A stretch of 54,860 bases of DNA from a virus. Taxonomy: Duplodnaviria; Caudoviricetes. This document shows, piece after piece, positions 6,295-41,422 of the stretch. Each line of letters opens with the position of its first letter. The stretch's first letter is position 1. The position numbers were made by a program, and so were the translations under genes. The notes beneath the pieces were generated by a model, which searched no databases, had not been told where the DNA came from, and saw only the letters and a program-made list of their open reading frames with translations. The DNA is taken from positions 1 to 54,860 of the IMG/VR virus record IMGVR_UViG_3300025875_000032, one strand, 5' to 3'.

Positions 6295-6468
6295 GTGACG
6301 GGGGGGGAGCGGAACCGGTGGCTCCGCCCCCTCGCCGCAGGGCTGATCGCCCTCGCCCTGCTCCTCCTCGCCCTCCTGCTCCTCGACCGGGCCGGCGCGT
6401 ACCTCTCCTCGGACGACGTGGTCGGCGCGTTCGCCGTCGCGTTCCTCGTGGGGGCGATGCTCGCGTGA
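6295..6468 (+). CDS. small two-TM membrane protein
   Basis: Two hydrophobic segments; coupled to terminase start. Confidence 0.6.
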   Translation: MTGGERNRWLRPLAAGLIALALLLLALLLLDRAGAYLSSDDVVGAFAVAFLVGAMLA

Positions 6469-13851: not shown

Positions 13852-14151
13852 GTGACGGACGCCCGGATCGACGCGCTCGCCGACCCGGTCGCCCTCGGCG
13901 TCGGCGCGCTCGCCGTGTACCGGGTGACCCGTCTCCTCGTCGAGGACGAGGTCCTCCGTCCGGTCCGCGAGCGGATCGCCCCCGACGAGGAGTCCCGCCT
14001 CGCCTACTTCGTGACGTGCCCGTGGTGCGTGTCCGTGTGGGCCGGCGCCGCGTGGGCCGGGCTGACCGTCCTCGCCCCTCGCGTCGCCCGTACCGCCGGC
14101 GCCGCCCTCGCCTGGAGTGCTGTCTCCGGGCTCCTGTCCTCGTGGGAGTGA
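13852..14151 (+). CDS. DUF1360-like membrane protein
   Basis: LAVYRVTRLL..D.V..P.R and YFVTCPWC.SVW motifs; lies before the portal. Confidence 0.75.
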   Translation: MTDARIDALADPVALGVGALAVYRVTRLLVEDEVLRPVRERIAPDEESRLAYFVTCPWCVSVWAGAAWAGLTVLAPRVARTAGAALAWSAVSGLLSSWE

Positions 14152-14155
14152 CCTC

Positions 14156-17100
14156 GTGTCGTTGCTCGACCTGTTCCGTCCCCGCCCGAGGACCTCGTCC
14201 CTCGCGGAGGCTCTGACCTCCCGCCTCCCCGCCCGAGGGTCCCTCGTCGCGTCGGCCGCCCTGCTCACGCCGCAGGAGGGGCTCCGCCTCGCGAAGGCGA
14301 GCAAGCGGCGCGAGTGGCAGCGGGCGTCGTTCGGGTACGCCCGCGCGCTGCCCGAGGTCGGGTACGCGATGCGGTTTCTCGCGAACAACGCCGCCCATAT
14401 CCGCCTGTTTGCCGGCGACCGCGCCCCCGCCGGCGACGAGGTCGTCGAGCTGACCGACGACTACGGGTGGACCGACGCCGGGAACGGCGTCGAGACGTAC
14501 GCCGAGGACGCCCTCCCCGAGGACCTCGTCGCCGCCGCGCGGCAGGCGGTCGACGAGCTGACCGGATACTCCCCCTCGGGCGGAGGCGCCGCCATCCTGT
14601 CGCCGCTGACCCGCAACTACGAGCAGGCCGGCGAGTGCTACCTCGTGGGCCGGTACTTCCCCGAGGCGAACGCCGGCGCCGGGCGCGAGGAGTGGGCGAT
14701 CCGCTCGATTTCCGAGCTGACGTTCGTCGAGGGGCGGTTCCGGGGGATGGACCCGGAACTCCCCCCCGGGTACTTCCGCCTCGTCACCGGGGAGGGGCGC
14801 GACGCCGAGGCAGTCGACCTCGACCCGTCCACAACGACTGTCTACCGCCTGTGGACGGCCGACGCCGAGTGGTCCTCCGAGCCGGACTCGCCCATGCGCT
14901 CCCTGATCGGCGTATGCGAGCGCCTGCTCCTGATCGAGAAGGGCGACGACGCCGCCCTCCGGTCCCGCGCGGCCGGGAACGGCGTCCTGTTGTGGCCCGA
15001 GGAGCTGGACTCCCTCCCCGACGACGAGGACGAGGAGGAGGACGAGTTCGACCGCGATTTCGTAACACAGCTAACGACGCCCCTCACGCTCGACGGGTCG
15101 GCCGCGCAGGTCGTCCCGATGATCAAGCGCGGCGCGTACCAGTACCTCGACCGGGTTCGTCACCTCACGTTCGGCCGCCCCCTCGACCCGCTCACGAACG
15201 AGCGCGAGGCGCGCCTCCTGACCCGCCTCGGGATCGGGCTCGACGTGCCCCCCGAGGTGATCACCGGGCTGTCCGACGTGAATCATTGGAACGCCTGGCA
15301 GATCAGCTCCGACACGTTCCGTCATCATCAGGAGCCGATCACGATCGCCGGCGTCGAGGCGCTGACCCTGTCGTACATGCGGACCCGGCTCCGGACCGCG
15401 AACCGGTGGGACGAGTCCCTGATCCGCCGCGTCGTCCTATGGTTCGACCCGTCCGGGCTCGTCGCCCCCGCCGATATGTCGGGCGCCGCGAACGACGCAC
15501 ACGATCGCGGACTGATCACGGACGAGGCGTACCTCCAGCTCCGAGGCATTGATGCGAGCATGGCTCCGCCGGAGGAGCAGGAGACGGGCTCCGACGGCGT
15601 CGGCGAGACGGGGCTCGACGTGGACCGCCTCCTCCAGGTCGCCACGATCGCCGACCGCCTGCTCCGCGCCGGGTACGCCCCCGACGACGTGAACCGGCAG
15701 CTCGGGCTCACGATCGCGCACACGGGCTCGATCCCCGGCGTCGCCTCCTCGACGCCCGCCGAGCTGCCCGCCGGGGGAGGGGCGGGGGAGGAGCCCGGCG
15801 ACGAGGCGACGACGCCCGAGGCGCCCCCGCTGCCCGAGCTGCCGGCCGCGTCCGGCGCCCCCCGCGCAATCGTCGCCGCTGCCGGCCCGACCGATCGGCA
15901 GCGACGCCTCGCCCGCCGGCTCGCCTCGATCGAGCGGACCCTCCGCGAGCGGATCGCGGCAGCAGCGGACGCCGCCGTCCTCCGCGCCCTGGAGCGCGCC
16001 GGGAACCGCGCACGCGCCGCCGCGCAGCGCAACGACGCCGCCCGCGACGCCGTCCAGGGGCAGCCCGCCGAGACGGTCGTCGCCTCCCTCGGGCGGACGA
16101 TGGTCGCCGCCCTCGGGCTGGAGGAGCAGCAGCTCCTCGCCGAGGCGTTCGGCCGGCTCCGCGAGCAGTACGCCGAGTGGACCGCGTCGGCCGCCGAGGA
16201 GGCGCTCGACACGGCCGCGCAGCTCGCCGGGCTCGACCGCTCCGACCCGTCCGTCGCCGCGCAGCTCGGCACGCTCCGCGACCGGTTCGCCGAGAACGCC
16301 GACGCCTCGTGGCCCGTCCTGGAGGGCGGGCTCCGCGACCTCGCCGCCGAGCGCCTGTACGACCCGGACCCGAACGTCGACCCGCTCGGCGAGCTGCCCT
16401 CCTCGATCGTCCCGCCCGGGATCGTCCGCGACGCCCTCGCGGTCGCCGGAGGAGTCCCCGGCGACTCCTCCGGCACCGGCCCCCGGAACGGGCTCACCTC
16501 CGGGGACCTCCTCGACGGGTTCCTCCGCGAGCACGGGCAGGAGGTCGTCGAGTACGAGTGGGCGTACGGGATCAGCTCCCGCCCGTTCCCCCCGCACGCC
16601 GACCTCGACGGCGTCGTGTTCGCCGGGTTCGACGACGCCGTCCTGTCCACCTCGGGCACCCGGGGCGAGTGGATCGGCGGGTCGTTCGCCCCCGGCGATC
16701 ATCGCGGCTGTCACTGCGATTACGTCCCGGTCTACGCCGACGCCCGGGACACGCGCGCCGAGCTGGAGGCGATCGGCGAGCGGGCGTACGTCGAGCAGAA
16801 CCCGGACCTCCCGCTCCCGACCCGGCAGGCGACGAGCGACGAGCGCGTGTACCGCGACCCGACCGGCCGGCCCGAGCAGCGCCCCTCGGCGACCGTCGAG
16901 GCAGCACGGGCGGTCCGCAATGGTCCCCCGGTCGTCGTCCCGCCGGCGGAGCCCGTCCCCCCGCGCCGGGTGGCTGCTCGCGGCCGGACCCGGCAGGCCG
17001 CGACGGACGAGGCGGGTATCCCGATGCGCCTCGATCACACGTACCTGTCGTCCCTCACGGACGAGCAGATCGACGACCTGTACGCGCATCTTGCCGTCCG

Positions 17101-17653
17101 GCAGGACTCCCTCGACCCGCGCGAGGGGCAGCGATGGGACGACCTCGACGCGTTCACGACGTACGGGCAGGAGCAGGAGCGCCTCGGCGACGAACTCGCC
17201 GAGCGCATGGCCGGCGACGAGGAGTGGCAGAACGCGTACGCCGCCCTCGACGAGCGCCTCGGCCGGCCCGGCGTCACTCACCCGCGCGTCGGCGGTCGAG
17301 GGTCCCGCGACGGGACGCCGACCCGCGCCGAGGTCCAGGAGGAGTACGCCCTGTTCGTCGAGCAGCAGCTCGTCGCCCTGGAGCGGCACGCCCTCACGCA
17401 CGGGATCACCCGCGCCGGGCAGGCGCGCGGAATCTCGTACCGCGACCTCCTGACCGGGGACATTCGGCTCGTCTACCGGTACGCCTCCCCGGAGACACTG
17501 GAGTTCCTGGAGACGAACCGCCGCGTCTCCTGGACGGAGTTCTATTTCGCCCGCACGGGCAAGGGGAACGCCGACCTCGCCCGGCGGCAGTACGAGGCGA
17601 ACGCCCGGATCAACAGGGACAAGACGAACAAGCAGAAGGGGAACCGGAAGTGA
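14156..17653 (+). CDS. portal protein fused to MuF-like minor head domain plus C-terminal extension
   Basis: N-terminal WQ....Y....EVGY....AN....RL and NHWNAWQI resemble cluster-B-like actinophage portals; YEW.Y.....F.PH..LDG...PGDH.GC.C is a MuF motif. Confidence 0.8.
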   Translation: MSLLDLFRPRPRTSSLAEALTSRLPARGSLVASAALLTPQEGLRLAKASKRREWQRASFGYARALPEVGYAMRFLANNAAHIRLFAGDRAPAGDEVVELTDDYGWTDAGNGVETYAEDALPEDLVAAARQAVDELTGYSPSGGGAAILSPLTRNYEQAGECYLVGRYFPEANAGAGREEWAIRSISELTFVEGRFRGMDPELPPGYFRLVTGEGRDAEAVDLDPSTTTVYRLWTADAEWSSEPDSPMRSLIGVCERLLLIEKGDDAALRSRAAGNGVLLWPEELDSLPDDEDEEEDEFDRDFVTQLTTPLTLDGSAAQVVPMIKRGAYQYLDRVRHLTFGRPLDPLTNEREARLLTRLGIGLDVPPEVITGLSDVNHWNAWQISSDTFRHHQEPITIAGVEALTLSYMRTRLRTANRWDESLIRRVVLWFDPSGLVAPADMSGAANDAHDRGLITDEAYLQLRGIDASMAPPEEQETGSDGVGETGLDVDRLLQVATIADRLLRAGYAPDDVNRQLGLTIAHTGSIPGVASSTPAELPAGGGAGEEPGDEATTPEAPPLPELPAASGAPRAIVAAAGPTDRQRRLARRLASIERTLRERIAAAADAAVLRALERAGNRARAAAQRNDAARDAVQGQPAETVVASLGRTMVAALGLEEQQLLAEAFGRLREQYAEWTASAAEEALDTAAQLAGLDRSDPSVAAQLGTLRDRFAENADASWPVLEGGLRDLAAERLYDPDPNVDPLGELPSSIVPPGIVRDALAVAGGVPGDSSGTGPRNGLTSGDLLDGFLREHGQEVVEYEWAYGISSRPFPPHADLDGVVFAGFDDAVLSTSGTRGEWIGGSFAPGDHRGCHCDYVPVYADARDTRAELEAIGERAYVEQNPDLPLPTRQATSDERVYRDPTGRPEQRPSATVEAARAVRNGPPVVVPPAEPVPPRRVAARGRTRQAATDEAGIPMRLDHTYLSSLTDEQIDDLYAHLAVRQDSLDPREGQRWDDLDAFTTYGQEQERLGDELAERMAGDEEWQNAYAALDERLGRPGVTHPRVGGRGSRDGTPTRAEVQEEYALFVEQQLVALERHALTHGITRAGQARGISYRDLLTGDIRLVYRYASPETLEFLETNRRVSWTEFYFARTGKGNADLARRQYEANARINRDKTNKQKGNRK

Positions 17654-17895
17654 CCGCGAGCCCGCCCTCCGCCCGCTGGAGCGCCTCCGGGGAGCTGCTC
17701 GCCCTCGTCGCCTCCGCGCCCGTCCCGGAGCCCTCCGAGGAGCAGGTCGAGGCGTACGACGCCGGCCGCGCCGCGTACGGCGCCGACCTTCCCTCGACAG
17801 ACTGCCCGCACGAGCCGACCTCCGACCTCGGGACCCTGTGGCTCCGGGGGTACGTGCTCGCCCGCCGCGATGATCAGTACGGTCCGGTCCGATGA
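17650..17895 (+). CDS. Rmf/CrpP-fold small protein with GELLALVA leader
   Basis: AYDAGRAA......DCP.........WLRGY resembles the ribosome modulation factor pattern G..AG.....CPY....W..GW. Confidence 0.65.
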   Translation: MTASPPSARWSASGELLALVASAPVPEPSEEQVEAYDAGRAAYGADLPSTDCPHEPTSDLGTLWLRGYVLARRDDQYGPVR

Positions 17896-17906
17896 CAGGA
17901 GACAAC

Positions 17907-19475
17907 ATGCCCCGCACCCGCCGACCGCTCGGTTCCGAGCGGTTCGCCCGGTTCGACGGAGGCGAGCTGCTCGCCCTCGTCGCGACCGCCCCCGTCGAGG
18001 TCGAGGACCCGCCGGCCGTCGAGGTCGTCGAGGTCGAGGAGCAGGCGCCCCCGCCCGCCGAGCGCACGCCCGAGGACCAGCAGCTCGACCCGCCGGCCGG
18101 GGGCGTCGCGTTCACCTCGCCGGCCGTCGTCCTGGAGGGATGGGAGACGAGCGACGGGCGGTACATCGAGCCCGGGTCGCTCGGGCGCCGCGACCTCCCT
18201 CAGACCCTTATGGCGATGCTCCGCAACCCGGACGGCGGGTTCTCCGGGCACGACGCCGCGATCGTGTGCGGCCGGATCGACTCCCTGGAGCGGTACGACG
18301 CCTCCGCCGAGCTGAACCGCGAGACGGGGCAGCCGTACGGGCCGGGCGTGTTCGCCTGGAGGGCGACCGGATGGATCGTCCCGAACGACGACCAGCCCGG
18401 CTCGCAGGCGACCCTCGACTACGTCCGCGATCAGGTCCTCCGGGGCGTGTCCGTCGACCTCGGCGAGGTCCGCGCCGAGTGGATCGTCCTGGAGGAGGAC
18501 GAGGAGGGGTTCCCCGAGCGCGAGAGGATGGTCGTCACGGCCGCGTCGCTCGCGCAGTTCACGATCACGCCGTTTGCCGCGTTCCCGGGGGCGTACATCG
18601 TCCTGGACGAGGGGCAGGGCGCCGCCGACGCGGGCGTCGAGCCCCCCTCGACGGAGGTCGTCCCGATCGCCGCGTCCGGGCTCCGCATCCTCCAGCCCGA
18701 GCGCGGCCGGCGGGCGCTCGTCGCGTCCCTCGCCGCCGACGCCGACACGGTCGCCCCCGTCGTCCCGCCCCGGGGATGGTTCGCCCGGCAGGAGGTCGCC
18801 GACCCGGCCCGACACGTGTACCTCGGGCGGGACCGGACCGGCCGCCCGACCGGGCAGGTTTGGGGCTACCTCGCGCAGTGGGGCGTCCCGCACGCCGGGA
18901 TCATGGACCGCGAGGTGTACGCCCCCCGGCTCGGGCCGGACGGGTACCGGACGTTCCACTCGCAGGGCTCCGTGTTCACGGAGGAGGGCGAGGAGGTCCC
19001 GACCGGAATCCTCACGTTCGGCGGGGGGCACGCCTCGACCGACCTCGGCGTGATCCCCGCCCTCGCGCACTACGACTCCGCCGGCTCCGCGTACGCCGAC
19101 GTGGTCCTCGGCGAGGACGAGTTCGGACCCTGGTTCGCCGGCGCGATGCGTCCGCACCTCACCCGGCAGCAGGTCGAGGAGTTCGGCCGGCACCCGCTGT
19201 CCGGGGACTGGAGGGCGAACCCGGGCGATCAGAACGTCCGGCTCGTCGCCGCCCTGTGCGTCAATACGCCCGGGTTCCCGATCCGGGGACACTCGTACCT
19301 CACGGCCGCCGGTGGGCGGACCCTGCTCGCGGCCGGCTCCGCGCCGCTCGTCCGCCGCTCGCAGCAGGGGCGCGGGCACGACGAGGACGCCGTCCGCCGC
19401 GTCGTCGACGACCGGATGCGGCCGGTACTGGCCGCCGCTGCTCGGGCAGGGCTCGCCCGGCTCCGCCGACCGTAG
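17907..19475 (+). CDS. capsid maturation (prohead) protease
   Basis: AGGAG RBS; EG.ETSDGR, GH..A..CGRI, RGVSVDL, P..AF motifs; LSGDWR and LVAAL.VN.PGFP. Confidence 0.8.
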   Translation: MPRTRRPLGSERFARFDGGELLALVATAPVEVEDPPAVEVVEVEEQAPPPAERTPEDQQLDPPAGGVAFTSPAVVLEGWETSDGRYIEPGSLGRRDLPQTLMAMLRNPDGGFSGHDAAIVCGRIDSLERYDASAELNRETGQPYGPGVFAWRATGWIVPNDDQPGSQATLDYVRDQVLRGVSVDLGEVRAEWIVLEEDEEGFPERERMVVTAASLAQFTITPFAAFPGAYIVLDEGQGAADAGVEPPSTEVVPIAASGLRILQPERGRRALVASLAADADTVAPVVPPRGWFARQEVADPARHVYLGRDRTGRPTGQVWGYLAQWGVPHAGIMDREVYAPRLGPDGYRTFHSQGSVFTEEGEEVPTGILTFGGGHASTDLGVIPALAHYDSAGSAYADVVLGEDEFGPWFAGAMRPHLTRQQVEEFGRHPLSGDWRANPGDQNVRLVAALCVNTPGFPIRGHSYLTAAGGRTLLAAGSAPLVRRSQQGRGHDEDAVRRVVDDRMRPVLAAAARAGLARLRRP

Positions 19476-19502
19476 GGTCCCCGGGGGACTACTGTCCGGG
19501 GG

Positions 19503-20741
19503 GTGAGTCGCGAGGAGGATCGCCCCGGGATCGTCGAGCGGGCGTTCGACCGCTGGAGGGTCCGCCTCGCGACGAAGCTCCTCGGGTGGGCGTTCCCCCT
19601 CGCCCTCGTCGCCCTGCTCCTCCTGTGGTTCGCACGCCGGCCGCGACTGCTCCTCGGAGTGATCGCGGCCGGCGTCGCCGTGTACGGGTGGCAGCGGTAC
19701 GGGTGGCTCCCGTTCGCCGTGCTCGCCGTGCTCGTCCTCGCCCCGTTCACGTCCGCTCGGTTCCGAGCGGTCGCCCGAGCGGCAGCACGACGGGCCGGGT
19801 ACGCCGCGCTCGCCGTCGTTGCCGACCCGCTCCGCCGGCCCGTCCCCCTACCCGCCCCCGCCGGGGCGACCCTGGAGGACCTCGGCGCCGTCACGGTCGG
19901 GCGCCGCGAGAACGGCGACCCGCTCGACCTCGCCGTGTGGCGCCCCGGGCGGGGGACGACACACCTCCTCGTCGCCGGCGTCACCGGCTCCGGGAAAGGC
20001 TCCGCAGTCTGGAGCCTCCTCGCCGGGCTCGGGCCGGCGATCCGCGACGGGCTCGTCGCCGTGTGGGCGGTCGACCCGAAGGGCGGAGCCGAACTCGGCG
20101 GGGGGCTTCCCCTGTTCGACCGGTTCGTGTGCGGGGGACCGACGCGCGACGGGTCCCCCTGGCAGACCGCGATCGCCGACCTCCTCGACGAGGCGGTCGG
20201 CGGGATGCAGGCGCGCCTAGTCGCCATGCGCGACCCGGCCCGCCCCGGCGGTCCCGTCCGCGTCCACACGCCGACGCCGGCGGAGCCCGTGATCCTCCTC
20301 GTCGTCGACGAGGTCGCCTCGATCACCGCGTACGCCCCGACGCCGATCCGGACCCGCGTCGAGAACTCCCTCTCCCTCCTCCTGTCGCAGGGGCGCGCGG
20401 CCGGCGTGTCCGTCGTCTCCTGTACGCAGGACCCACGGAAGCAGACCCTCGCGTTCCGGGACCTGATCCCCGAGCGGGTCGCCCTCCGCACGGCGGAGCC
20501 CGTCGCCGACCTGATCCTCGGGCCGGGGATGCGCGAGCGCGGGGCGCTCACGGAGCAGATCGACCGGCGCCTCGCCGGCGTCGGGTACCTCGTCGACGAG
20601 CGGTCCGCCGAGCCCGTCCGCGTCCGGTTCGCGTACGTCGACGACGCGCAGCTCGCCAACCTCGGGCGCCGGTACGCCCCCTCCCGCGCCGTGCTCGTCG
20701 ACGAGCCCCTCCAGGCGACCTCGACGCGGGTCCCGTCGTGA
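19503..20741 (+). CDS. FtsK/SpoIIIE DNA translocase of AICE Tra/TraB type
   Basis: N-terminal TMs; HLLVAGVTGSGKGS Walker A, VDPKGG.EL, LVVDE Walker B, LLSQGRAAG...TQDPRK, EPVRVR.AYV.D. Confidence 0.9.
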   Translation: MSREEDRPGIVERAFDRWRVRLATKLLGWAFPLALVALLLLWFARRPRLLLGVIAAGVAVYGWQRYGWLPFAVLAVLVLAPFTSARFRAVARAAARRAGYAALAVVADPLRRPVPLPAPAGATLEDLGAVTVGRRENGDPLDLAVWRPGRGTTHLLVAGVTGSGKGSAVWSLLAGLGPAIRDGLVAVWAVDPKGGAELGGGLPLFDRFVCGGPTRDGSPWQTAIADLLDEAVGGMQARLVAMRDPARPGGPVRVHTPTPAEPVILLVVDEVASITAYAPTPIRTRVENSLSLLLSQGRAAGVSVVSCTQDPRKQTLAFRDLIPERVALRTAEPVADLILGPGMRERGALTEQIDRRLAGVGYLVDERSAEPVRVRFAYVDDAQLANLGRRYAPSRAVLVDEPLQATSTRVPS

Positions 20742-21004
20742 GGGGACGCCTCCGCCGCGCTCGCGCCTCCGCGCTCGTCCTGGCCCTCGCGCTCGTCCTC
20801 GCCGGCGCCGCGTACCTCGCGCTCCGGGCGCTGGACCCGCGCCCGTGGGTCGCCCTCGTCGGCGCGTGCGGTCCGCTCCTGATCCCCGGGCTCCCGGCCG
20901 CCCTCATGCTCGCCGCGACCCTCCGACACGGCGACCCGTACGACGTGTCGCACCGGTACCCGCCGGGCTCGCACCTCGGGAGGAGTGTCGGTCCCCGCGA
21001 GTAG
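20738..21004 (+). CDS. two-TM membrane protein coupled to the translocase
   Basis: GTGA overlap; two hydrophobic segments. Confidence 0.6.
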   Translation: MRGRLRRARASALVLALALVLAGAAYLALRALDPRPWVALVGACGPLLIPGLPAALMLAATLRHGDPYDVSHRYPPGSHLGRSVGPRE

Positions 21005-21044
21005 GGTTCGCCGTGTATAAATAGGGGGCACCCGCTCCCACGCC
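21005..21044 (+). promoter_or_regulatory. conserved phage promoter element
   Basis: GGTTCGCCGTGTATAAATAGGGGGCAC...TCCCACGCC. Confidence 0.85.
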
Positions 21045-21057
21045 TACCAGAGGACCC

Positions 21058-21585
21058 GTGACCATGATCGACAACGAGCAGCAGATCGACCACGCCGAGC
21101 ACGCCGCCGTCCGCGCCGAGTCCGAGCGCGAGAACCGCGAGGAGCAGGCGCACGCCGACCTCGTGACCGCGACCGTCCAGCACCTCCGCGCCCTCGGGAC
21201 CGCGAGCTACCTCGACGCGCAGGCGTCCCTCGCCCGGTTCGCCGAGGAGGTCCGGCTCCGCCTCGCCCCGAACGCGCACCGGTACGAGCTGCTCGCCCGG
21301 CAGCAGCACGTCGCCCTCCTCGCCCCGACGACCGCCTCCTCGATCGAGGGCGCCGGCTCGTACGACCTCGCCGAGGTCGCCCGGGTCGCCGCCCGCGCCT
21401 ACGCGACGACGCACCGGTCCCCCCGGGACGGCGACCTCCTGAACCGCGCGCTCGCGCACGCGGTCGCCCGGGTCGCCGACGCCGTCGCCGAGGTCGCCCA
21501 CCACGCGCAGCAGGCCGCGACCGACCGCGAGGTCGAGCAGCACGAGCGCGACCTCGCCGAGCGCGACGCCGGCTCCGAGCTGTGA
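21058..21585 (+). CDS. hypothetical helical protein
   Basis: AGAGGA RBS; coding-like. Confidence 0.7.
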   Translation: MTMIDNEQQIDHAEHAAVRAESERENREEQAHADLVTATVQHLRALGTASYLDAQASLARFAEEVRLRLAPNAHRYELLARQQHVALLAPTTASSIEGAGSYDLAEVARVAARAYATTHRSPRDGDLLNRALAHAVARVADAVAEVAHHAQQAATDREVEQHERDLAERDAGSEL

Positions 21586-21875
21586 TCGCGACCGTGTTCG
21601 CCGTCGTCCTCGCGAAGCGCACCGCGTCCGGAACCGCGCTCACCGTGAACCGTCGCCCGCACGACGCCGCCCCGCTCGTCCTGTCCCTCCACGCGAGCCG
21701 GCAGGCGGCCGACCGGCGCCTCGTCGAGGTCGCCCGCGCCGAGTGGGACTCCGACGAGTCGAACCTCGCCTACGCCTACGGGCCGGCCGACGCGTGGGAG
21801 GACGCAAAGCTCCTGGAGCACATGCGCGACCTCGGATACCTCGCGACCGTGACCGAGCAGGTCGTCGAGCTGTGA
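21582..21875 (+). CDS. hypothetical protein
   Basis: GTGA-coupled. Confidence 0.65.
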   Translation: MIATVFAVVLAKRTASGTALTVNRRPHDAAPLVLSLHASRQAADRRLVEVARAEWDSDESNLAYAYGPADAWEDAKLLEHMRDLGYLATVTEQVVEL

Positions 21876-22189
21876 GCGTCGTCACCGGGACGACCCGGGC
21901 GCTCGCCTGCCTCGCCCTCGGGCATGACGAGGACGGGTCCGTCCGCTGCCCCTCCTCCGACGAGGACCTCGTCCGGCAGCTCGTCGAGCAGGTCCAGGCG
22001 CTCCGCGTCGCCGCCGGCGTCGTCGAGGAGTCCGAGGTCGACCGCGCCGAGCGGATCGAGGTCGTCGAGGACGTGCTGTCGGACGTGCTCGTCGACTCCG
22101 ACGCCGTGATCGACCCGGAGGTCGCTCGCCGGCTCGTCGAGCGCCTCGACGGCGCCGGGTGGACCCTGCACCCGGTCCGCCGTCCGTGA
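21872..22189 (+). CDS. hypothetical protein
   Basis: GTGA-coupled. Confidence 0.6.
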   Translation: MSVVTGTTRALACLALGHDEDGSVRCPSSDEDLVRQLVEQVQALRVAAGVVEESEVDRAERIEVVEDVLSDVLVDSDAVIDPEVARRLVERLDGAGWTLHPVRRP

Positions 22190-22587
22190 CCGGGGAGGAC
22201 CGGACCGCGCTCGCGTGGGCTGCCGGCGTGTTCGACGGCGAGGGGTATATCGGGTCGAAAATCCGAAAGACGCCCGGCGGTCGCCGGAACCCGTACATCC
22301 ATATGTCCGTGTCTCAGTACCACGACGCCGAGGTCGTCGAGCGGTTCACGGCCGCCCTCGGCATCGGTACGTGCTCTGTTCGTCACCGGGAGACGCCGCG
22401 CGGACCCGTGGTCGAGTCCCTGTGGCGCGTCCAGAGTTTCGAGAAGGTGCAGGCTGCCGTCGCGCTGCTCTGGCCGTGGCTCAGTGGGCCGAAACGGCGG
22501 CAGGCCGTCCAGGCGTTGCAGTCGTTCCACGGGGAGCGGGAGGTCCTCGGCGTCCGTGAGTGGCGCCGTCGAACCGCGTCGGCGTGA
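22186..22587 (+). CDS. LAGLIDADG homing endonuclease
   Basis: WAAGVFDGEGYI motif; L.PWL..PKR.QA end. Confidence 0.85.
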   Translation: MTGEDRTALAWAAGVFDGEGYIGSKIRKTPGGRRNPYIHMSVSQYHDAEVVERFTAALGIGTCSVRHRETPRGPVVESLWRVQSFEKVQAAVALLWPWLSGPKRRQAVQALQSFHGEREVLGVREWRRRTASA

Positions 22588-22629
22588 CACTCGGAGGGGG
22601 GACTCGCGCATCGGGTCTCCCCTCCGAGC

Positions 22630-22669
22630 GGTTACCCGTGTATAAAAGGGGGGCACACGTTCCCACGCC
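22630..22669 (+). promoter_or_regulatory. conserved phage promoter element
   Basis: GGTTACCCGTGTATAAAAGGGGGGCAC...TCCCACGCC. Confidence 0.85.
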
Positions 22670-22680
22670 TGGAGGTTCCC

Positions 22681-22857
22681 GTGTCCCACTCCACCCGCCC
22701 CCGCCGGCTCGCCGACGGGCAGCAGCTCGCGCTCCTGCCGACCTCGATCGAGGAGGACGGCGATCAGCTCGACCTCGTCGAGCACGCCGGCGTCGAGACG
22801 CTGTCGCCCACCCCGGCCGCCGCCGGCCCCCTCGTCCTGCTCCCCCTGGAGGGCTGA
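22681..22857 (+). CDS. 58-aa protein with two QLxL motifs (absent from ORF track)
   Basis: GGAGG RBS directly after the promoter element; MSHSTRPRRLADGQQLALLPTSIEEDGDQLDLVEH... Confidence 0.7.
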   Translation: MSHSTRPRRLADGQQLALLPTSIEEDGDQLDLVEHAGVETLSPTPAAAGPLVLLPLEG

Positions 22858-22860
22858 CCG

Positions 22861-23226
22861 GTGGCGAAGCGCGGGCAGCTCCAGCCCTGGAGGGTCCGGT
22901 ACGAGTGGCCCGGCGGAACCTCCGGCACGAACTCGCACGTCACCCGCGAGGACGCCGTGTTCGCCGCCCGCCGGCAGGTCGAGCGCGTGAGCCCGCTCAC
23001 CGGCCGCCGCGAGTGTGTCGCGACCGTGTCGCACCGCGACCGCCCCGAGGAGGTCGAGGAGTTCGCCTCGACGGCGACGGTCTGCGAGTGGTGCGACGCC
23101 GAACTCGACGGCGTCGACGACCCGGTCGACGTGTGCGAGCCCGGGTGCGACTGCCCGCCCTGCTCCGTCGCCCGAGCCCTCGACGACGACGCCGACGCCT
23201 ACCGCGACCGGGTCCGGAACCCGTGA
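22861..23226 (+). CDS. hypothetical protein with Cys cluster
   Basis: GGAGGG RBS; CEWC...C..GCDC..C. Confidence 0.65.
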   Translation: MAKRGQLQPWRVRYEWPGGTSGTNSHVTREDAVFAARRQVERVSPLTGRRECVATVSHRDRPEEVEEFASTATVCEWCDAELDGVDDPVDVCEPGCDCPPCSVARALDDDADAYRDRVRNP

Positions 23227-23513
23227 CCGGCCACGCGCTCACGCCCTACGGGTACGCGACCGTCGCGCTCGCCGCCCGCGAGCCCGAGTGGGACCCGGCA
23301 TACGAGGACCCGGACGGGCTCCTCGACGACGCCGATCACGAGCCCGAGGAGGACCGCGACGCCCCGTCCCTCGACGAGGCGCTCGGCGTCCCCGTCGACA
23401 CGTACTGCCCGGACTGGCCGCACCGGTACGTGTGCCCGGAGTGCTCCGGGAATGGCTGCCGCGCCTGCTCGGGCACCGGTGAACGGGAGGACCGGCGCCC
23501 CTGCCGACACTGA
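23223..23513 (+). CDS. hypothetical protein with CxxCxGxG motifs
   Basis: CPECSGNGCRACSGTG. Confidence 0.6.
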   Translation: MTGHALTPYGYATVALAAREPEWDPAYEDPDGLLDDADHEPEEDRDAPSLDEALGVPVDTYCPDWPHRYVCPECSGNGCRACSGTGEREDRRPCRH

Positions 23514-23515
23514 TC

Positions 23516-23557
23516 CGCCGCAACTCCGCACGCGCACCCGCCCCGCTGTTCTACGGT
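23516..23557 (+). promoter_or_regulatory. CGCCGCAACTC-N25-TACGGT putative capsid operon promoter
   Basis: Shared motif and spacing with 13802 and 50414. Confidence 0.6.
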
Positions 23558-23692
23558 CCGTCCGTACGAGCAGCGGGGCGTCGCGCTACCTAGTGGCCCG
23601 CCTCGCCGCCCCCCGCCCATAGGGCGCCCGGGGGTACCGCTCGCAGACGACCGTCCGTACGTCTGTCGACGATCCCCGAGGAGGGGCAACCC

Positions 23693-25660
23693 GTGTCACG
23701 CAACCTGAACCGCCGCCCGAGCAGCACCCGGAGCCGCGTCCGGTTCGGCTCGTCCGGCGAGCTGCTCGCGCTCGTCGCCGACGCCCCCGAGTCGCCGCTC
23801 GCGTTCCTGGACACGCCGGAGGGCGCCGAGCCGCTCACCCGCGCGCAGATCGAGGAGTACCTCGCCGGACTGGACGCCGAGGCGCTCGGCGAGGTCGTCG
23901 AGGCCGCCCGCTCCGAGGCGGAGGGGATCGACGTTGCGACCGTCACCTCCGAGACGATCGAGCGGATCACGACCCTCGGCGACGCCGTCGAGGTCGCCGA
24001 GGGTCGCCTCCAGCAGATCGAGGCGGAGGAGGTCGAGCGGCAGCAGCGCGCCGCCGACGCGCTCCAGCGCCTCCAGCGCCCGGCCGCCGAGGGCGAGGGC
24101 GAGGGCGAGGGAACGGAGGGCGCCGAGGGCGCCGAGGGCGAGGGCGCCGAGGGCGCGAACGCCGAGCAGCCCGAGCCCGTCGCCGCCTCCGGGGGCACCC
24201 GCCCGCCGGCCGCCCGCCGGACGACCGTCCTCCCCCGCCCCGGCGCCTCCGGTGGCATGGGCTCCGGGACCGCTGCCGGCCGCACCGGTGGGACCGCCCC
24301 CGCGTACACGGCGCCGCAGGCGTCGAACGCCCTCGTCGCCTCCGCCGGTCTGGAGTCGATCGGGATCAACAACGGGTCGACGATCGAGTCGCCCCGGCAG
24401 CTCGGCGACGCGTTCGGGCTCCGGATCGACGCGCTCCGGCGCGGGCACGGGTCCGGCGCGGACGGCGAGCACCTCACCGTCGCGACCGTCCGGACCTCGT
24501 TCCCCGAGGAGCGGCGCCTCCGCGAGGGCGCCGTCGACCGGAACACGGCGCTCGTCGCCGCTGCCGTCACCCGCGAGAACCTCCTCGCGGCCGGCGCGCA
24601 CGCGTCCGGGAACGGCGCGATCGTCGCCGCCGGCGGTCTGTGCGGTCCGATCGACTCCCTGAACGACGTTCCCGTCCTCGGCTCGACCGCCCGGCCCGTC
24701 CGCGACGCGCTCGCGAACTTCGGCGCCGAGCGCGGGGGCGTCCGGTGGCGCGAGCACCTCTCGTTCGGCGACCTCGCCGCCGCCGTCGGGTTCTGGACCC
24801 TCGCCGACGACGAGGCAGCGGGCGACCCGGCGAACACGGTCGACGGCGTGTACGGCGGACCCGTCAAGCCGTGCGCCGAGGTCCTCTGCCCCGGCGAGGT
24901 CGAGGCGTACGTCGAGGCGATCACGCTCTGCCTCCTGTTCCGCAACGCCTCGGCGCGGTTCGACCCGGAGGGCACGGCCGCGAACATCACGGCCGCGCAG
25001 ATCGCGCACGCCCGGATCGCCGAGAACCGGCTCCTCTCGCAGCTCGGCGCCCTCTCGACGACCGTCACGGGCGGGGAGGTCCTCGGCGCGCTCCGCGACC
25101 TGCTGACGTGGCTCGACCAGCTCCTCGCGCAGTACCGGTCGTTCTACCGGCTCGACGACACGATCGCCCTCCGGATGGTCCTCCCGCAGTGGGTCCGGCT
25201 CATGCTCCGCGCCGACCTCACCCGGGGCATGGCCGGCGACCTGGACGCGATCGCCGCGTCCGACGCGCAGATCGCCGGATGGTTCCAGACACGGGGCGTG
25301 AACATCACGTGGCACCTCGACGGGCTCGGCGCCCGGGGCGCTGCCGCCGGCGTGGCCCCCGCGATCCCCGCGCAGGCGTACGGGGCGTTCTCCCCGGCCG
25401 GCGCGGTCGCCGCGTTCCCGGCCGCGATCGAGGCGCTCCTGTGGGTCGAGGGCGACATGCTCCACCTCGACGGCGGAACCCTGGACCTCGGCGTCGTCCG
25501 CGACTCCACCCTGAACGCCCGGAACGAGTACAAGACGTTCAGCGAGTCGTGGGAGGGCGTCGCGCACCGGGGCGTCGAGGCGATCCGGGGCGTCGTGACG
25601 ACCCGGCCGCTCGGCATGGTCGCCGGCACCCGCGACACGGCCGCGATCCTGGCCGCCTGA
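23693..25660 (+). CDS. major capsid protein with N-terminal scaffold-like region
   Basis: GAGGAGG RBS; coiled-coil N-terminus, IVAAGGLCGP, RGG, KPC....CP, GG.LDLGVVRDSTLN..N.Y..FSE. Confidence 0.9.
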   Translation: MSRNLNRRPSSTRSRVRFGSSGELLALVADAPESPLAFLDTPEGAEPLTRAQIEEYLAGLDAEALGEVVEAARSEAEGIDVATVTSETIERITTLGDAVEVAEGRLQQIEAEEVERQQRAADALQRLQRPAAEGEGEGEGTEGAEGAEGEGAEGANAEQPEPVAASGGTRPPAARRTTVLPRPGASGGMGSGTAAGRTGGTAPAYTAPQASNALVASAGLESIGINNGSTIESPRQLGDAFGLRIDALRRGHGSGADGEHLTVATVRTSFPEERRLREGAVDRNTALVAAAVTRENLLAAGAHASGNGAIVAAGGLCGPIDSLNDVPVLGSTARPVRDALANFGAERGGVRWREHLSFGDLAAAVGFWTLADDEAAGDPANTVDGVYGGPVKPCAEVLCPGEVEAYVEAITLCLLFRNASARFDPEGTAANITAAQIAHARIAENRLLSQLGALSTTVTGGEVLGALRDLLTWLDQLLAQYRSFYRLDDTIALRMVLPQWVRLMLRADLTRGMAGDLDAIAASDAQIAGWFQTRGVNITWHLDGLGARGAAAGVAPAIPAQAYGAFSPAGAVAAFPAAIEALLWVEGDMLHLDGGTLDLGVVRDSTLNARNEYKTFSESWEGVAHRGVEAIRGVVTTRPLGMVAGTRDTAAILAA

Positions 25661-25737: not shown

Positions 25738-26571
25738 GTGCTGACCCGAGTCGTCGCCCCCCGGGCGACCGTTCCCCCTCACTCCCTGATCCGCGCCGCC
25801 GTGACCACGCTCGACGGCGAGGCCGGGTGGGAGCGCGGGCTCACCTACGCCCCCGAGTCCCCCGGCGGGTACCGGGCGTTCGCCGCCTGTACCGACGCCG
25901 AGTACGTCGACGAGGGCTCCGGCGTGACGCCCGCCGTCGAGTACCGGCCGTGGGACCTCCAGGTCCTCCACCCGTGTCACTCGACGTTCGGGCTCGACGA
26001 GGTCCAGCTCGACGCCGAACTCGGGCGAGCGATGGACACCGTCGAGTCCTACGCGATCGCCCGCGAGTTGTGGGCCGGCGACCTCACCCGCGCCGCTGCC
26101 GACGCCGGCGACGTGGACGCCCCGAACCTCTCCCTCGTCGACGGACCGACCGTGCTCAACGGCGGGACGCCGACGAAAGCAGCCCTCGCCCTCGGGATGC
26201 TGGAGCAGGCGGTCGGCGACGCCCTCCGGGGGCAGCAGGCGTACCTCCACGTCGGCCGGATCGCGCAGAACCTCCTCCCGAACGTCACCCGCGAGGGGAA
26301 CCTGCTCACGACCCGGATCGGGAACCTCGTCGTCGCCGACGCCGGGTACCCGGGGACGCCCCCGATCGGCGAGGACGCCGCCCCGGGCGTCGGGTGGGTC
26401 TACGCGACCGGCCCGGTCGTCGTCCGCCGCTCCTCGATCGAGCGCCTCGGCATCGGGCAGGGCGCGCTCGACACGAGGACGAACACGCTCGACCTCCGCT
26501 CGACCCGGGTCGTCGCCGCGACGTTCGACCACTCCGCCCTGTTCGCCGTCCCCGTCGACCTGACCGCCTGA
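25738..26571 (+). CDS. second capsid protein (pentamer/minor capsid-like)
   Basis: Follows major capsid; E...IARELW.G, LE, T..GN.VV..GY.G.P, W.YATGPV motifs. Confidence 0.65.
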   Translation: MLTRVVAPRATVPPHSLIRAAVTTLDGEAGWERGLTYAPESPGGYRAFAACTDAEYVDEGSGVTPAVEYRPWDLQVLHPCHSTFGLDEVQLDAELGRAMDTVESYAIARELWAGDLTRAAADAGDVDAPNLSLVDGPTVLNGGTPTKAALALGMLEQAVGDALRGQQAYLHVGRIAQNLLPNVTREGNLLTTRIGNLVVADAGYPGTPPIGEDAAPGVGWVYATGPVVVRRSSIERLGIGQGALDTRTNTLDLRSTRVVAATFDHSALFAVPVDLTA

Positions 26572-40598: not shown

Positions 40599-40976
40599 TC
40601 ACGCGATCGGCAGGACGCCCCCGTCGTCGAGTAGGAACACGAACCCGAGCCCGGCGATCCGGACCGGGATCGAGGCGGGCTCGTCGACGTTGCTCGACAC
40701 GAGCAGCCCGAGAGGCCGGGACCACTCCGGCGACCCGTGGACGGAGCGGCCGGCGACGCCGTCGAGGAGGAGTCCCGGCGCCCCGAAGTTGTGGACCCGC
40801 GCGAGCAGCGCCACGACGTTCGACGGCGCCTGCTGGTTCGCCCTGCTCGTCCCCCCGCGACCGCCCGGCCGCCGATGGTGCAACGCGTCACGGTCCCAAT
40901 CGAGGGGGAGGCCCGTCACGGCACAAAGGCCGCGCTGCCTCTCCCATGCCAGCTCGCGTAGCTCGCGCATCCTCAC
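40599..40976 (-). CDS. HNH-like endonuclease
   Basis: R.RG.C, LHHRR..G.GG, SN...L...HN, VH..PE.S...GLLV. Confidence 0.7.
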   Translation of the reverse strand: MRMRELRELAWERQRGLCAVTGLPLDWDRDALHHRRPGGRGGTSRANQQAPSNVVALLARVHNFGAPGLLLDGVAGRSVHGSPEWSRPLGLLVSSNVDEPASIPVRIAGLGFVFLLDDGGVLPIA

Positions 40977-41422
40977 CGGGCGCGCCGCTTGGCGTCGTGT
41001 CGCGCGTTGGCCGCCGTCCGGCAGGCTCGGCACTCGCGCTCGCCGCGCGGGTTCACGTACAGGTTGTCCCCGTCGAGCGGGTGCCCTTCCCGCGCGCAAT
41101 GAGTCTTGCGCCGGTTCACCTGCCACGGCGACTCGCCCCGCCGCAGATTGACCCGGCCCGTTACGACCTCCGTGTCCGCCGGGTTGGCACAGTGGCGCAC
41201 CCGGCACCGGTGGTCGAGCTGTCGGTCGGCGGGGATCGGCCCGACGAGCGCCTCGCGGACGACGCGATGCACGTACTCCGATCGGCCCTCGTGGCTAACC
41301 TTCCCGTATCCGTTGGTCGACAGGCAGCCCGTCCACTCCCAGCAGCCCGACGGCGATACCCGGAGCTTGCGCCAGATGCGCTCGGGGATGCGTGGGTCGC
41401 CGAACGCGACGGGCGTACTCAT
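40973..41422 (-). CDS. HNH endonuclease
   Basis: CWEWTG....GYG, HR, LDH.CR.R.C.NP..E.VT..N, KTHC..GH; -10 TAGTGT 7 nt upstream. Confidence 0.9.
   Translation of the reverse strand: MSTPVAFGDPRIPERIWRKLRVSPSGCWEWTGCLSTNGYGKVSHEGRSEYVHRVVREALVGPIPADRQLDHRCRVRHCANPADTEVVTGRVNLRRGESPWQVNRRKTHCAREGHPLDGDNLYVNPRGERECRACRTAANARHDAKRRAR

Follow-up and report, generated by a model that had tools for sequence, protein, structure and literature searches.

The 81-aa Rmf/CrpP-family protein, the prohead protease and the major capsid protein (MCP) encoded in the window, which is a whole virus record of 54,860 bp (GC ~75%) from an uncultured phage, all begin with the same short leader, and comparison with related phages supports the view that a single conserved peptide module recurs on these three proteins of head assembly. 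Judging from sequence, the leader most likely marks these three head proteins for trimming by the phage's own head protease. The fuller reading, in which the leader is a beta-hairpin propeptide with a protease motif and the small protein is a partner of the MuF C-terminal region, is one towards which we lean modestly. The features on which the analysis draws are collected in Table 1.

Table 1. Coordinates of head-module genes, leaders and candidate processing sites in the window.
Feature	Position (nt)	Strand	Basis
Portal-MuF-extension fusion protein, 1178 aa	14117..17653	+	phrog_776, weak PF04233
SLVASAA, candidate site near portal N-terminus, aa 42-48	14240..14260	+	Core regex match
AIVAAAG, candidate site at portal-MuF border, aa 584-590	15866..15886	+	Ortholog alignment
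C-terminal extension of MuF part	16847..17650	+	Conserved PTRxEVQEEY...RYASPELLEFLETNRRxSWxEFY
81-aa Rmf/CrpP-family protein	17650..17895	+	NF041886 match; overlaps both neighbours
Leader RWSASGELLALVASAP of small protein	17674..17721	+	Motif scan and leader HMM
Prohead (capsid maturation) protease, 527 aa	17892..19475	+	phrog_859, phrog_18402
Leader ARFDGGELLALVATAP of protease	17946..17993	+	Motif scan and leader HMM
TLLAAGS, candidate C-terminal self-processing site of protease, aa 477-483	19320..19340	+	Alignment and model
Major capsid (hexamer-type) protein, long N-terminal delta/scaffold region, 655 aa	23693..25660	+	NF033847, phrog_777
Leader RVRFGSSGELLALVADAP of MCP	23735..23788	+	Motif scan and leader HMM
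ALVASAG, candidate site after disordered part of MCP delta region, aa 213-219	24329..24349	+	
AIVAAGG (of AIVAAGGLCGP), candidate maturation site before HK97-fold N-arm, aa 309-315	24617..24637	+	
phrog_779 protein, homolog of Rosebush record's 'major capsid pentamer protein'	25738..26571	+	

Occurrence and conservation of the leader

A six-frame scan of the window returned GELLALVAxAP three times in total, at nt 17689, 17961 and 23756, and each match, reading GELLALVA[S/T/D]AP, fell close to the N-terminal end of a genuine gene product: it spans aa 14-24 in the 81-aa protein, aa 24-34 in the protease and aa 22-32 in the MCP. Upstream of it, R-[W/F]-x3-G is common to all three proteins. A leader HMM was built from 142 instances in other genomes, excluding the window's own proteins, and searched against all six-frame ORFs of the window; the three leader proteins scored 30.4, 28.3 and 25.2 bits, and the next-best ORF 5.4 bits. 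This clear gap and the three matches confirmed the preliminary description, which had placed the same N-terminal motif on three proteins at these positions. The motif search across related phages that it had suggested also found the leader conserved on all three, the strict pattern being present in 66 of 120 protease homolog clusters, 60 of 120 MCP clusters and 19 of 36 small-protein clusters. Read by eye, 16 of the 36 small-protein clusters have a short form, RPETI[VIL]A[SD][AG].

Across these 120, 120 and 36 clusters the residue after LVA was class-specific, with T in the protease, D in the MCP and S in the small protein, and protease and MCP leaders paired by contig showed no clear co-variation by eye. 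At nine sites of the leader in three genomes, the codons varied (CTG/CTC/CTA/CTT, GCC/GCG, CCC/CCG, GGG/GGC/GGT) and the residues were kept. Since these are synonymous changes within a conserved leader, selection acts on the peptide. A short N-terminal peptide common to several head proteins is what would be expected of a propeptide or a capsid-targeting sequence.

Protease and major capsid protein

The AF2 model of the protease (pLDDT 81.9) predicts a protease domain of the T4 gp21/assemblin fold. Residues 69-229 aligned with T4 gp21 (5jbl_C) at Z 9.6 and rmsd 2.2 A over 120 aligned residues, herpesvirus proteases were matched at Z 6-7, and the next unrelated folds (MCE/MlaD) scored Z 6.1 or less. 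Among 63 sequences S187 was invariant and H120 at least 90% conserved, and these are the putative catalytic Ser and His. The head-protease family includes relatives of Cluster B mycobacteriophages.

The MCP matched NF033847 (MCP_Sipho) at 285.8 bits, as well as phrog_777, and its AF2 model had a pLDDT of 81.4. The leader was predicted as a hairpin in both proteins, with strands 19-22 and 25-29 in the protease and 15-18 and 24-28 in the MCP. The majority of HK97-fold alignments began at residue 315-331 of the MCP model, right after the AIVAAGGLCGP loop; this does not fix the mature N-terminus, because some alignments (encapsulins, HK97 Prohead I) began at residue 212-237.

Recurrence of the leader core at borders of head proteins

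The leader core, h-L/I-V-A-x-A/G-G/P, was also found at domain borders, namely at two further MCP sites, at the portal-MuF junction and at the protease C-terminus. A regular expression for the core matched 7 times in four head proteins (2,441 aa) and once in the 47 other predicted proteins (10,795 aa), that one match being in a capsid protein. Shuffled head proteins gave a mean of 0.21 matches and 0/2000 shuffles reached 7, although this enrichment figure is too favourable because the expression was written after the sites had been seen. A looser 5-mer of the core matched 12 times in 13 proteins. The proteome of the window as a whole is rich in Ala/Val/Gly.

At the portal-MuF border, AIVAAAG follows a Pro/Glu-rich linker and directly precedes a conserved ptDxQRRL, and its counterparts in orthologs read AIVAAAT, VLVAAAP, AITAAAP, LALVAAAP and AITAAAP. 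The protease position of TLLAAG reads [AS]L[VI]AAG in 29 of 32 rows (every second of 63 sequences); the window's own row reads TLLAAG, and A480, A481 and G482 are invariant in the 63 sequences. AF2 modelled TLLAAGS as a strand with low-pLDDT stretches on both sides. In the MCP, ALVASAG coincides with a predicted strand (211-216) and is conserved as [ATV]LVA[AS]AG in the clade, with similar h-V/T-A-A/G-A/G strings family-wide. The second MCP site, AIVAAGGLCGP, is within a loop (308-320) of pLDDT <50, and among the 120 MCP homologs listed, ALVAAGG[LF]C[AG]P is near-invariant; ALVAAGGLC[AG]P might instead serve a structural role in the mature MCP and not be a cut site. SLVASAA, which is loosely conserved in portal orthologs (GGLTAAG, GALIGAA, KTLTAAA), is the weakest of the candidate sites. 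The phrog_779 protein carries LVVADAG at aa 197-203 (nt 26326-26346), a motif conserved in 4 of 5 orthologs.

Because the core turns up again at conserved borders within the MCP, portal-MuF and protease sequences, these comparisons support the idea that it behaves like a prohead-protease processing motif; both the cutting and the position of the scissile bond are inferred. The leader HMM gave no score to the internal core sites of the head proteins, so the hairpin part would be something beyond the cut site. Of the common address and cleavage tag that had been proposed, the cleavage part gained comparative support, as a motif of that type recurs at head-protein borders, and the address part, in which the leader delivers the small protein to the head, did not.

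The small protein and the MuF extension

The small gene overlaps both neighbour genes (GTGA and ATGA), including the MuF stop codon. Its product matched NF041886 (Rmf/CrpP) over residues 35-72 at 36.8 bits (cut-off 28), and the Rmf/CrpP pattern seen earlier in the 81-aa protein is thus real at the family level. It scored under the cut-off with both NF041887 (Rmf_like_phage, equivalog; 35.0 bits, cut-off 40) and Pfam RMF PF04957 (25.8 bits, cut-off 27.9). At E up to 1, PRK14563 was not among its NCBIfam matches and none of the solved Rmf chains was matched by its family profile, while 27 of the 36 homolog clusters bear a precomputed PF04957 mark. Ribosome modulation factors associate with 30S/70S ribosomes and promote 100S dimers, and E. 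coli Rmf is a basic protein, in keeping with 16S rRNA binding. The small protein has a pI of 4.42 and a net charge of -6.4 (core residues 33-81, pI 4.65), and being acidic, below the PF04957 cut-off and unmatched by solved Rmf chains it is not supported as a ribosome-hibernation factor; the ribosome-modulating cargo of the preliminary description is likewise left unsupported.

In the fusion protein, phrog_776 (portal) covers aa 38-660 at E 9.8e-78, and PF04233 (Phage_Mu_F) matched weakly at aa 807-868 (20 bits, under the cut-off of 29.6). The C-terminal extension of the MuF part has no family in Pfam or NCBIfam, toxin families included. However, phrog_12049 'head morphogenesis' matched 7 of 8 members of the extension, and PHROG families annotated as head maturation protease matched 6 and 2 of the 8. 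Judged by these matches, the extension would be a regular component of MuF and MuF-protease proteins, not a variable tip.

The claim that the 81-aa protein is coupled to the MuF extension was borne out by gene content, by gene fusion and by a predicted interface. Extension and small gene occur together in 9 of 9 genomes having either, the cultured phage Picard included, and both are absent in 3 of 3 others. In two genomes (L074/L075), a single 1229-aa ORF joins MuF, extension, Rmf-like domain and protease in frame, with VLRASAG and GITASAT at the two borders. The complex prediction with the MuF C-terminus, also suggested beforehand, gave an ipSAE of 0.73 for the small protein with the extension, compared with 0.00 for the best control; the runs agreed in at least 81% of contacts, partner pLDDT was at least 81, and the predicted interface uses the conserved Rmf-like core of the small protein. 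The ipSAE mark was reached by 58 of 80 solved complexes and 2 of 110 mismatched pairs, a calibration that is only roughly valid here because the complex alignments, which were our own, are small (8 and 36 rows). The models thus support the small protein as a predicted head-internal partner of MuF. Of the earlier alternative of partner or immunity protein, the partner was retained, and immunity found no Pfam or NCBIfam toxin family in the extension to act upon.

The full leader is absent from 16 of the 36 small-protein clusters, from the homolog in one related genome (L055), which lacks any leader, and from Picard gp05, and two genomes (L061 and L073) have a short-leader small protein together with a full-leader protease. 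Since all small proteins with a short leader or none still adjoin the same MuF extension, the association does not depend on a full leader, and these cases gave no support to the proposal that the leader brings the small protein into the head. The product of Streptomyces phage Picard gp05 (NF041887, Rmf_like_phage) is likewise small and of the Rmf/CrpP fold, and its gene immediately follows one for a MuF-like head morphogenesis protein that ends in the same C-terminal domain as the MuF protein of the window. Picard gp05 has no leader and matches NF041887 at 77.5 bits, whereas the small protein of the window has the leader and 35 bits. Our literature searches found no paper on the pairing of an Rmf-like protein with the MuF extension.

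Proposed mechanism

In the reading that we favour, the leader R-[W/F]-x3-G-x-L-L-A-L-V would be a short hairpin propeptide ending in h-[L/I]-[V/T]-A-x-[A/G]-[G/P], the putative recognition motif of the prohead serine protease. The same core would mark the expected cuts in the MCP, after the disordered scaffold and before the HK97-fold N-arm, at the portal-MuF border and at the C-terminal tail of the protease. After assembly of the prohead, the protease would cut itself and break up the MCP delta region, and it would also trim the small protein and detach MuF from the portal. The small protein, which we infer to be packaged in the head, would be carried into the prohead on the portal-MuF fusion. 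In one lineage it would enter as part of a MuF-extension-Rmf-protease polyprotein, and in this clade its N-terminus would have acquired the propeptide that the MCP and the protease also carry.

Alternative explanations

The extension could instead be a MuF polymorphic toxin delivered with the DNA, the small ORF providing immunity in the producer cell. The strict co-occurrence, the predicted interface, the position of the small ORF directly downstream of MuF and the variation of the MuF C-terminal region among relatives (different in L063, lacking in L054 and L062) would all suit such a pair, and an extension of MuF followed by a small ORF is the arrangement described in Jamet et al. 2017 (PMC5576092). 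Here, however, no toxin domain is recognised in Pfam or NCBIfam, and 7 of 8 members of the extension match a head-morphogenesis family, as a recurrent module would. One lineage, moreover, joins the small ORF to the protease, and an in-frame extension-Rmf-protease fusion is a poor fit to immunity. MuF toxins are reported from temperate phages, and no integrase or repressor families were found in Pfam scans of 51 predicted proteins (11 + 40, from crude gene calls with several ORFs outside the scan). We regard this explanation as rather unlikely. Also unlikely, in our opinion, is the reading of the preliminary description, in which the leader is a T4-like capsid-targeting address that loads an Rmf-fold protein, later injected to modulate host ribosomes. 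It is opposed by the small proteins with a short N-terminus or without a leader, by their acidic character (pI 4.4, net charge about -6, where E. coli Rmf is basic), by the sub-threshold Pfam RMF score and lack of a matching solved Rmf chain, and by the predicted MuF interface, which occupies the conserved Rmf-like core itself. It is favoured by the match to the Rmf/CrpP family model and by the conserved hairpin part, which extends beyond the putative cut site and is common to the three N-termini only, and T4 propeptides are said to target proteins into the prohead core (PMC10052503).

The hairpin could also act as an assembly adaptor, by which the portal-bound small protein, the MCP delta region and the protease co-assemble, nucleating the shell at the portal and recruiting the protease, before all three are trimmed. 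This would agree with the identical hairpin predictions in MCP and protease, with the conservation of the hairpin part beyond the cut motif and with the predicted binding of the small protein to a domain covalently joined to the portal, but leader-less clades assemble heads with homologous proteins, and L061 and L073 combine a short-leader small protein with a full-leader protease, and we consider it unlikely. We would credit just as little a version in which the leader is a hairpin 'assembly handle' on a portal-held Rmf/CrpP adaptor, the MCP and the protease, where hairpin co-assembly holds portal, shell and protease together until LVA cleavage releases them, and the freed small protein remains in the head beside MuF and passes into the host along with the DNA. 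It is very improbable that the repeat is a signal in DNA or RNA, such as a regulatory site or recombination hot spot, or that low-complexity sequence matched by chance. The three DNA copies of the leader are closely alike, and GC3 >90% fixes most codons anyway; yet Leu, Ala, Pro and Gly codons do change while the residues do not, every copy is in frame and equally far from a start, and each protein class has its own residue behind LVA. In a scan of a genome collection (185,579 species, 596 billion bases), the exact leader pattern occurred 12 times, 0 of them in this context.

Comparison with known systems

The proposed propeptide can be set beside several known systems. Herpesvirus assemblin, whose fold is shared with the protease of the window at Z about 7, cuts after Ala in (V/L/I)-x-A-S, a site resembling the L-V-A followed by S, T, D or A of the window's leaders. 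In Staphylococcus phage 80alpha, both the capsid and the scaffold protein start with a short leader, and the host protease Prp takes it off at a motif common to the two. Prp is also the enzyme by which Firmicutes mature ribosomal protein L27; in the window, a phage protease that itself bears the motifs would be the simpler agent. For HK97, Duda et al. in 2013 reportedly thought that a short terminal peptide of the protease, its encapsidation signal, brings it into the prohead beside the MCP delta domain. That signal is C-terminal and not on the MCP, whereas the leader described here is N-terminal and nearly identical in MCP and protease.

The systems of T4 gp21 and of gp245 from the giant phage SPN3US also place N-terminal propeptides ending in one short protease motif on several head proteins. 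According to PMC10052503, mass spectrometry for SPN3US gp245 revealed a layout like the one proposed here, in which head proteins bear N-terminal propeptides, some short and some long, and the protease bears one at its C-terminus. In the long propeptides of T4 and SPN3US the motif is repeated several times, the protease is provided with a C-terminal site of its own, and T4 propeptides also address proteins to the prohead core. The protease domain of the window is predicted to have the T4 gp21 fold. In contrast to those systems, the candidate motif here, known from sequence comparison, is hydrophobic and Ala-based (LVA-x-A/G) rather than x-x-Glu. The leader, a conserved predicted hairpin of 16-18 residues, is carried by the MCP itself as well as by the protease and a single small protein, and the phage is a siphophage of ~55 kb.

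Implications

If the proposed processing is correct, h-L/I-V-A-x-A/G would provide a sequence rule for the cut sites of a large, mostly uncultured actinophage head-protease family; a preprint on actinophage capsids says of the site at which the delta domain is cleaved that it 'is not possible to predict' (10.1101/2022.09.09.507160). The short, portable leader would then be a candidate for loading foreign proteins into actinophage heads. The phage branch of Rmf/CrpP would also gain a first functional context, as a partner of the MuF C-terminal domain in the head module, with the warning that 'Rmf' in annotations should not be read as ribosome hibernation.

A leader shared by three head proteins

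A six-frame scan of the window matched GELLALVA[S/T/D]AP three times, 14 to 24 residues past the starts of an 81-aa small protein, the prohead protease and the major capsid protein (MCP), and R-[W/F]-x3-G upstream of this leader was common to all three proteins. A profile made from 142 leaders of other genomes, with the window's own proteins excluded, was run over all six-frame ORFs of the window; it scored 30.4, 28.3 and 25.2 bits at the three sites and 5.4 bits at the best other stretch, and no fourth leader-bearing protein was found. Scan and profile thus confirmed the leader on the three proteins at the positions where the preliminary description had placed it. The exact leader DNA pattern occurred 12 times in a genome collection, never in head-protein context. 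A chance origin was ruled out by the restriction to three sites, the gap in profile score and the scan of the genome collection.

The sole leader-like match outside head-protein families was a 475-aa replication-type protein with the N-terminus ...RSRRFGELLALVAPAPPEW (L056:15781-17208, minus strand). Its N-terminal RRFGELLALVAPAP was set aside as coincidence; the contig is that of an unrelated phage of lower GC content.

The virus record is complete, with 54,860 bp and about 75% GC, and its gene order follows the siphophage layout. The protease and MCP genes are split by about 4.2 kb (19503-23690), an unusual break within a head module, and several kb likewise lie between these genes in the related contigs L001 and L002. 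The T5orf172/MUG113 and HNH_3 genes listed in the table make several homing-endonuclease-like genes within one 55-kb genome.

Features of the virus genome and positions of the core motif h-[L/I]-[V/T]-A-x-[A/G]-[G/P]
Feature	Position	Remarks
T5orf172/MUG113-domain protein	1069-1416	
Large terminase	6318-8315	
Portal-MuF-extension fusion, 1178-aa ORF	14117-17653	phrog_776 portal aa 38-660; weak PF04233 MuF aa 807-868
81-aa small-protein gene	17650-17895	overlaps both neighbours, GTGA and ATGA
Capsid maturation protease, 527 aa	17892-19475	
FtsK/SpoIIIE-like P-loop protein	19503-20741	PF01580, E 1.1e-7; inside the ~4.2-kb insert
HNH-like protein	22159-22587	phrog_5046; inside the ~4.2-kb insert, beside several small ORFs
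MCP, 655 aa	23693-25660	NF033847, 285.8 bits
HNH_3 endonuclease	40973-41431 (-)	
T5orf172/MUG113-domain protein	47911-48321	
Homolog of Rosebush-record 'pentamer' capsid protein		also encoded
Major tail protein, tape measure, endolysin, ERF recombinase, SSB		also encoded
Core SLVASAA	portal residues 42-48	
Core AIVAAAG	portal-MuF residues 584-590	follows a Pro/Glu-rich linker, just ahead of the MuF part
Core TLLAAGS	protease residues 477-483	
Core ALVASAG	MCP residues 213-219	follows the disordered segment of the scaffold region
Core AIVAAGG	MCP residues 309-315	

Conservation of the leader in related viruses

The motif search in relatives that the preliminary description had proposed showed that the leader is kept on the same head proteins in related contigs (L001, L002, L054, L055, L057, L058, L061, L062, L063 and L073), whose identity to the window ranges from 79% to 50% for the MCP and from 78% to 50% for the protease. 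At nine sites compared in three genomes, the Leu, Ala, Pro and Gly codons differ in their third bases but encode unchanged residues, indicating that selection acts on the peptide and ruling out a DNA-level signal.

Among the matches listed from a large protein collection, the strict leader pattern was present in 66 of 120 protease clusters and 60 of 120 MCP clusters. For the small protein, 19 of 36 clusters carried it (20 by eye), and 16 of 36 had a short N-terminus, RPETI[VIL]A[SD][AG], holding the core only; the L055 homolog (45% identity) had neither form. Judged by eye, nearly all proteases and MCPs above about 45-50% identity have the leader and those below do not, distant proteases beginning directly at the catalytic domain and the N-terminus of distant MCPs being helical and different. 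Each protein class has its own residue after LVA: T-A-P is seen in 58 of 69 proteases, S-A-P in 16 of 19 small proteins and D-G/A in MCPs. Each of the three leaders was therefore passed down with its gene rather than copied between genes. A search of phage records found the small protein in no cultured phage record; cultured-phage matches to the MCP and protease had identities of 42% or less and lay outside the leader, and a pattern search of the representative genome collection gave no protease relative.

Several protease homologs vary around this region. P0107, P0110, P0113 and P0116 have a Cys-rich insert right after the leader (e.g. GCPDGCPGDHGD...CPGCDDTCPACT), which looks like a metal-binding module, and P0072 has the core in tandem duplicate (LLALVATALVATAP). 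In a subgroup (P0087, P0089, P0091, P0094, P0097, P0100, P0103, P0105, P0109, P0111, P0112, P0115 and P0119), a basic N-terminal extension of 40-50 residues precedes the leader, and in several of these a second core-like string, e.g. AILAAAGRARL, lies inside the extension.

The core motif at domain borders

The core of the leader recurs within the head proteins of the window (see table), and these positions are conserved. MCP 213-219 reads [ATV]LVA[AS]AG across the clade, with similar strings family-wide, and ALVAAGG[LF]C[AG]P, at the second MCP site, is near-invariant among 120 listed MCP homologs. Orthologs have AIVAAAT, VLVAAAP, AITAAAP or LALVAAAP at the border between portal and MuF. The protease C-terminal site is [AS]L[VI]AAG in 29 of 32 rows (every second of a 63-sequence alignment), leaderless members included, the window's row being TLLAAG; A480, A481 and G482 are invariant. 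L067, a prophage-like record whose protease is 41% identical, is without the leader, but its protease C-terminus still has ALVAAGG and its MCP has AIVASGG.

A regular expression for the core matched the four head-assembly proteins (2,441 aa) 7 times and the 47 other predicted proteins (10,795 aa) once; shuffled head proteins had a mean of 0.21 matches and none of 2000 shuffles reached 7, an enrichment that is too favourable because the expression was written after the sites were seen. The lone outside match lay in the pentamer-type capsid protein, and 4 of 5 orthologs of that protein keep it. More weight belongs to the conservation seen at aligned borders.

In Mycobacterium phage Rosebush (L069), the MuF-protease border of gp13 (GTVAASGGWAAPSEQ) and the MCP gp15 (ALVAAGGWCAPSEQ) have a 14-residue string in common. 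Rosebush, whose protease and MCP belong to the same families as those of the window, is an independent case of one motif in both a protease polyprotein and a capsid protein. We rejected ALVAAGGWCAPSEQ as a delta border, as the 120-sequence alignment puts it at the family-wide motif corresponding to window residues 309-315, and the likely maturation site was placed there. The text of the Rosebush capsid paper (PMC7150772) contains neither 'cleav' nor 'protease', and according to an actinophage capsid preprint (10.1101/2022.09.09.507160) the place where the delta domain is cleaved is not predictable.

Structure models of the MCP and protease

Searches by sequence found no solved relative for the MCP or for the small-protein profile, and only one chance-level match (E 0.41) for the protease. 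In the MCP model (mean pLDDT 81.4) the leader forms a beta hairpin (strands 15-18 and 24-28), followed by long helices (50-127), disorder (135-200), a strand (211-216) and a low-confidence loop (308-320) that holds the AIVAAGGLCGP segment. Most solved mature HK97-fold chains align from residue 315-331 onward: HK97 1ohg_A residues 116-383 align to 317-637 (Z 13.1) and Che8 8e16_A aligns from its residue 4 to model residue 315 onward (Z 12.9), while T7 3j7w_A gave Z 13.6 and rmsd 5.4 A over 272 aligned residues. For HK97 Prohead I and some encapsulins the alignment begins at 212-237. Since mature chains align from about 315, the most likely place of the main maturation cut of the MCP is 309-315, and the scaffold region would be cut further at 213-219 and at the leader, an assignment that is likely rather than settled.

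The leader is again a hairpin in the protease model (pLDDT 81.9; strands 19-22 and 25-29). Protease residues 69-229 match T4 gp21 5jbl_C (Z 9.6, rmsd 2.2 A, 120 aligned), with herpesvirus proteases next at Z about 7. Among the aligned proteases S187 never changes and H120 hardly ever does. The cleavage motif of assemblins is (V/L/I)-x-A|S, and the window's L-V-A with S, T, D or A as the next residue is similar to it.

The small protein and its link to the MuF extension

The small protein passes the Rmf/CrpP family model NF041886 with 36.8 bits (cut-off 28), so that the likeness noted in the preliminary description holds at family-model level. It falls below the cut-offs of both the phage equivalog NF041887 (35 bits against 40) and Pfam RMF (25.8 against 27.9), it is acidic (pI 4.4, net charge -6.4), and its family profile found no solved Rmf chain. 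The proposal that it is a ribosome-modulating cargo is not supported by its acidic pI, its Pfam RMF score and the lack of a matching Rmf chain.

The small gene occurs together with the C-terminal extension of the MuF part in nine genomes (the window, L001, L002, L057, L055, L061, L073, L074/L075 and Streptomyces phage Picard), and both are absent from L054, L062 and L063, other C-terminal sequence standing in place of the extension in L063 and L062. None of the 12 genomes judged was discordant; L058, a contig that starts inside the upstream region of the small gene, was left outside the count. Of 8 extension members, 7 match phrog_12049 'head morphogenesis', and 6 and 2 match PHROGs that carry a head maturation protease annotation; no Pfam or NCBIfam family was found, and an ESM Atlas search gave no usable match. 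In Picard, the MuF-like gp04 ends in the extension domain and is directly followed by gp05 (62 aa), whose NF041887 score is 77.5 bits. In the contig L074, one 1229-aa ORF (L074:2731-6417) holds the MuF, extension, Rmf-like domain and protease in frame, with two borders, SVLRASAGDAVPEP and GITASATPEG; L074 and L075, from different metagenomes, are identical over 9,249 bases.

The domain set for head assembly is thus joined in differing orders by lineage: portal and MuF are one ORF in the window's clade, MuF is fused to the protease in Rosebush, and MuF, extension, Rmf-like domain and protease are joined in L074.

Complex prediction with the MuF C-terminus, also proposed in the preliminary description, used extension residues 55-268 of the 268-aa piece (8-row alignment) and small-protein residues 20-81 (36-row alignment). 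It gave a predicted interface with ipSAE 0.73 (median of three runs) versus 0.00 for the best control; in calibration, 58 of 80 solved complexes reached the mark for a complex, as did 2 of 110 mismatched pairs, counts that hold here only roughly because our own alignments were used. The runs share at least 81% of contacts, with partner pLDDT of at least 81, and contacts are predicted between the extension's conserved EVQEEYALFVEQQ helix region (165-180) and the small protein's conserved Rmf-like core (49-77). The modelling supports, short of showing, binding of the small protein to the MuF C-terminal domain.

Discussion

As the best-supported account, we propose that the leader would be a hairpin propeptide ending in the recognition motif of the protease itself, that the same core motif may mark other cuts expected during head maturation, and that the small protein would be a partner of the MuF C-terminal domain. 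The small protein is probably head-internal, because it is linked through the portal-MuF fusion, and its conserved putative protease motif is an argument for an encounter with the protease within the prohead. A cut site alone does not account for the leader's hairpin part, for which the possible roles are those of an address, of an assembly handle and of an extended recognition element. The earlier interpretation is partly supported: the leader shared by head proteins and the link to MuF stand, and ribosome modulation is not supported.

A toxin-immunity pair, with the extension as MuF toxin and the small ORF as immunity, agrees with the gene layout (PMC5576092) and fits that layout only, being ill suited to the nature of the extension and to the L074 fusion. 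As to propeptides cut by the protease, a mass spectrometry study of SPN3US gp245 (PMC10052503) gives 14 sites in nine substrates. Eight of the propeptides there are N-terminal, two having lengths of just 20 and 24 residues, the protease has one at its C-terminus, and long propeptides are cut at several internal places, a pattern that matches the one proposed here for the window's head proteins. Literature searches, with most subscription journals outside their coverage, found nothing on the leader motif, on Rmf/CrpP-MuF pairing or on point for published cleavage sites of actinobacteriophage capsid maturation proteases. Prohead-protease propeptides with a shared motif are an already known kind of system; the association of phage Rmf/CrpP-fold proteins with the MuF C-terminal domain is new and testable.
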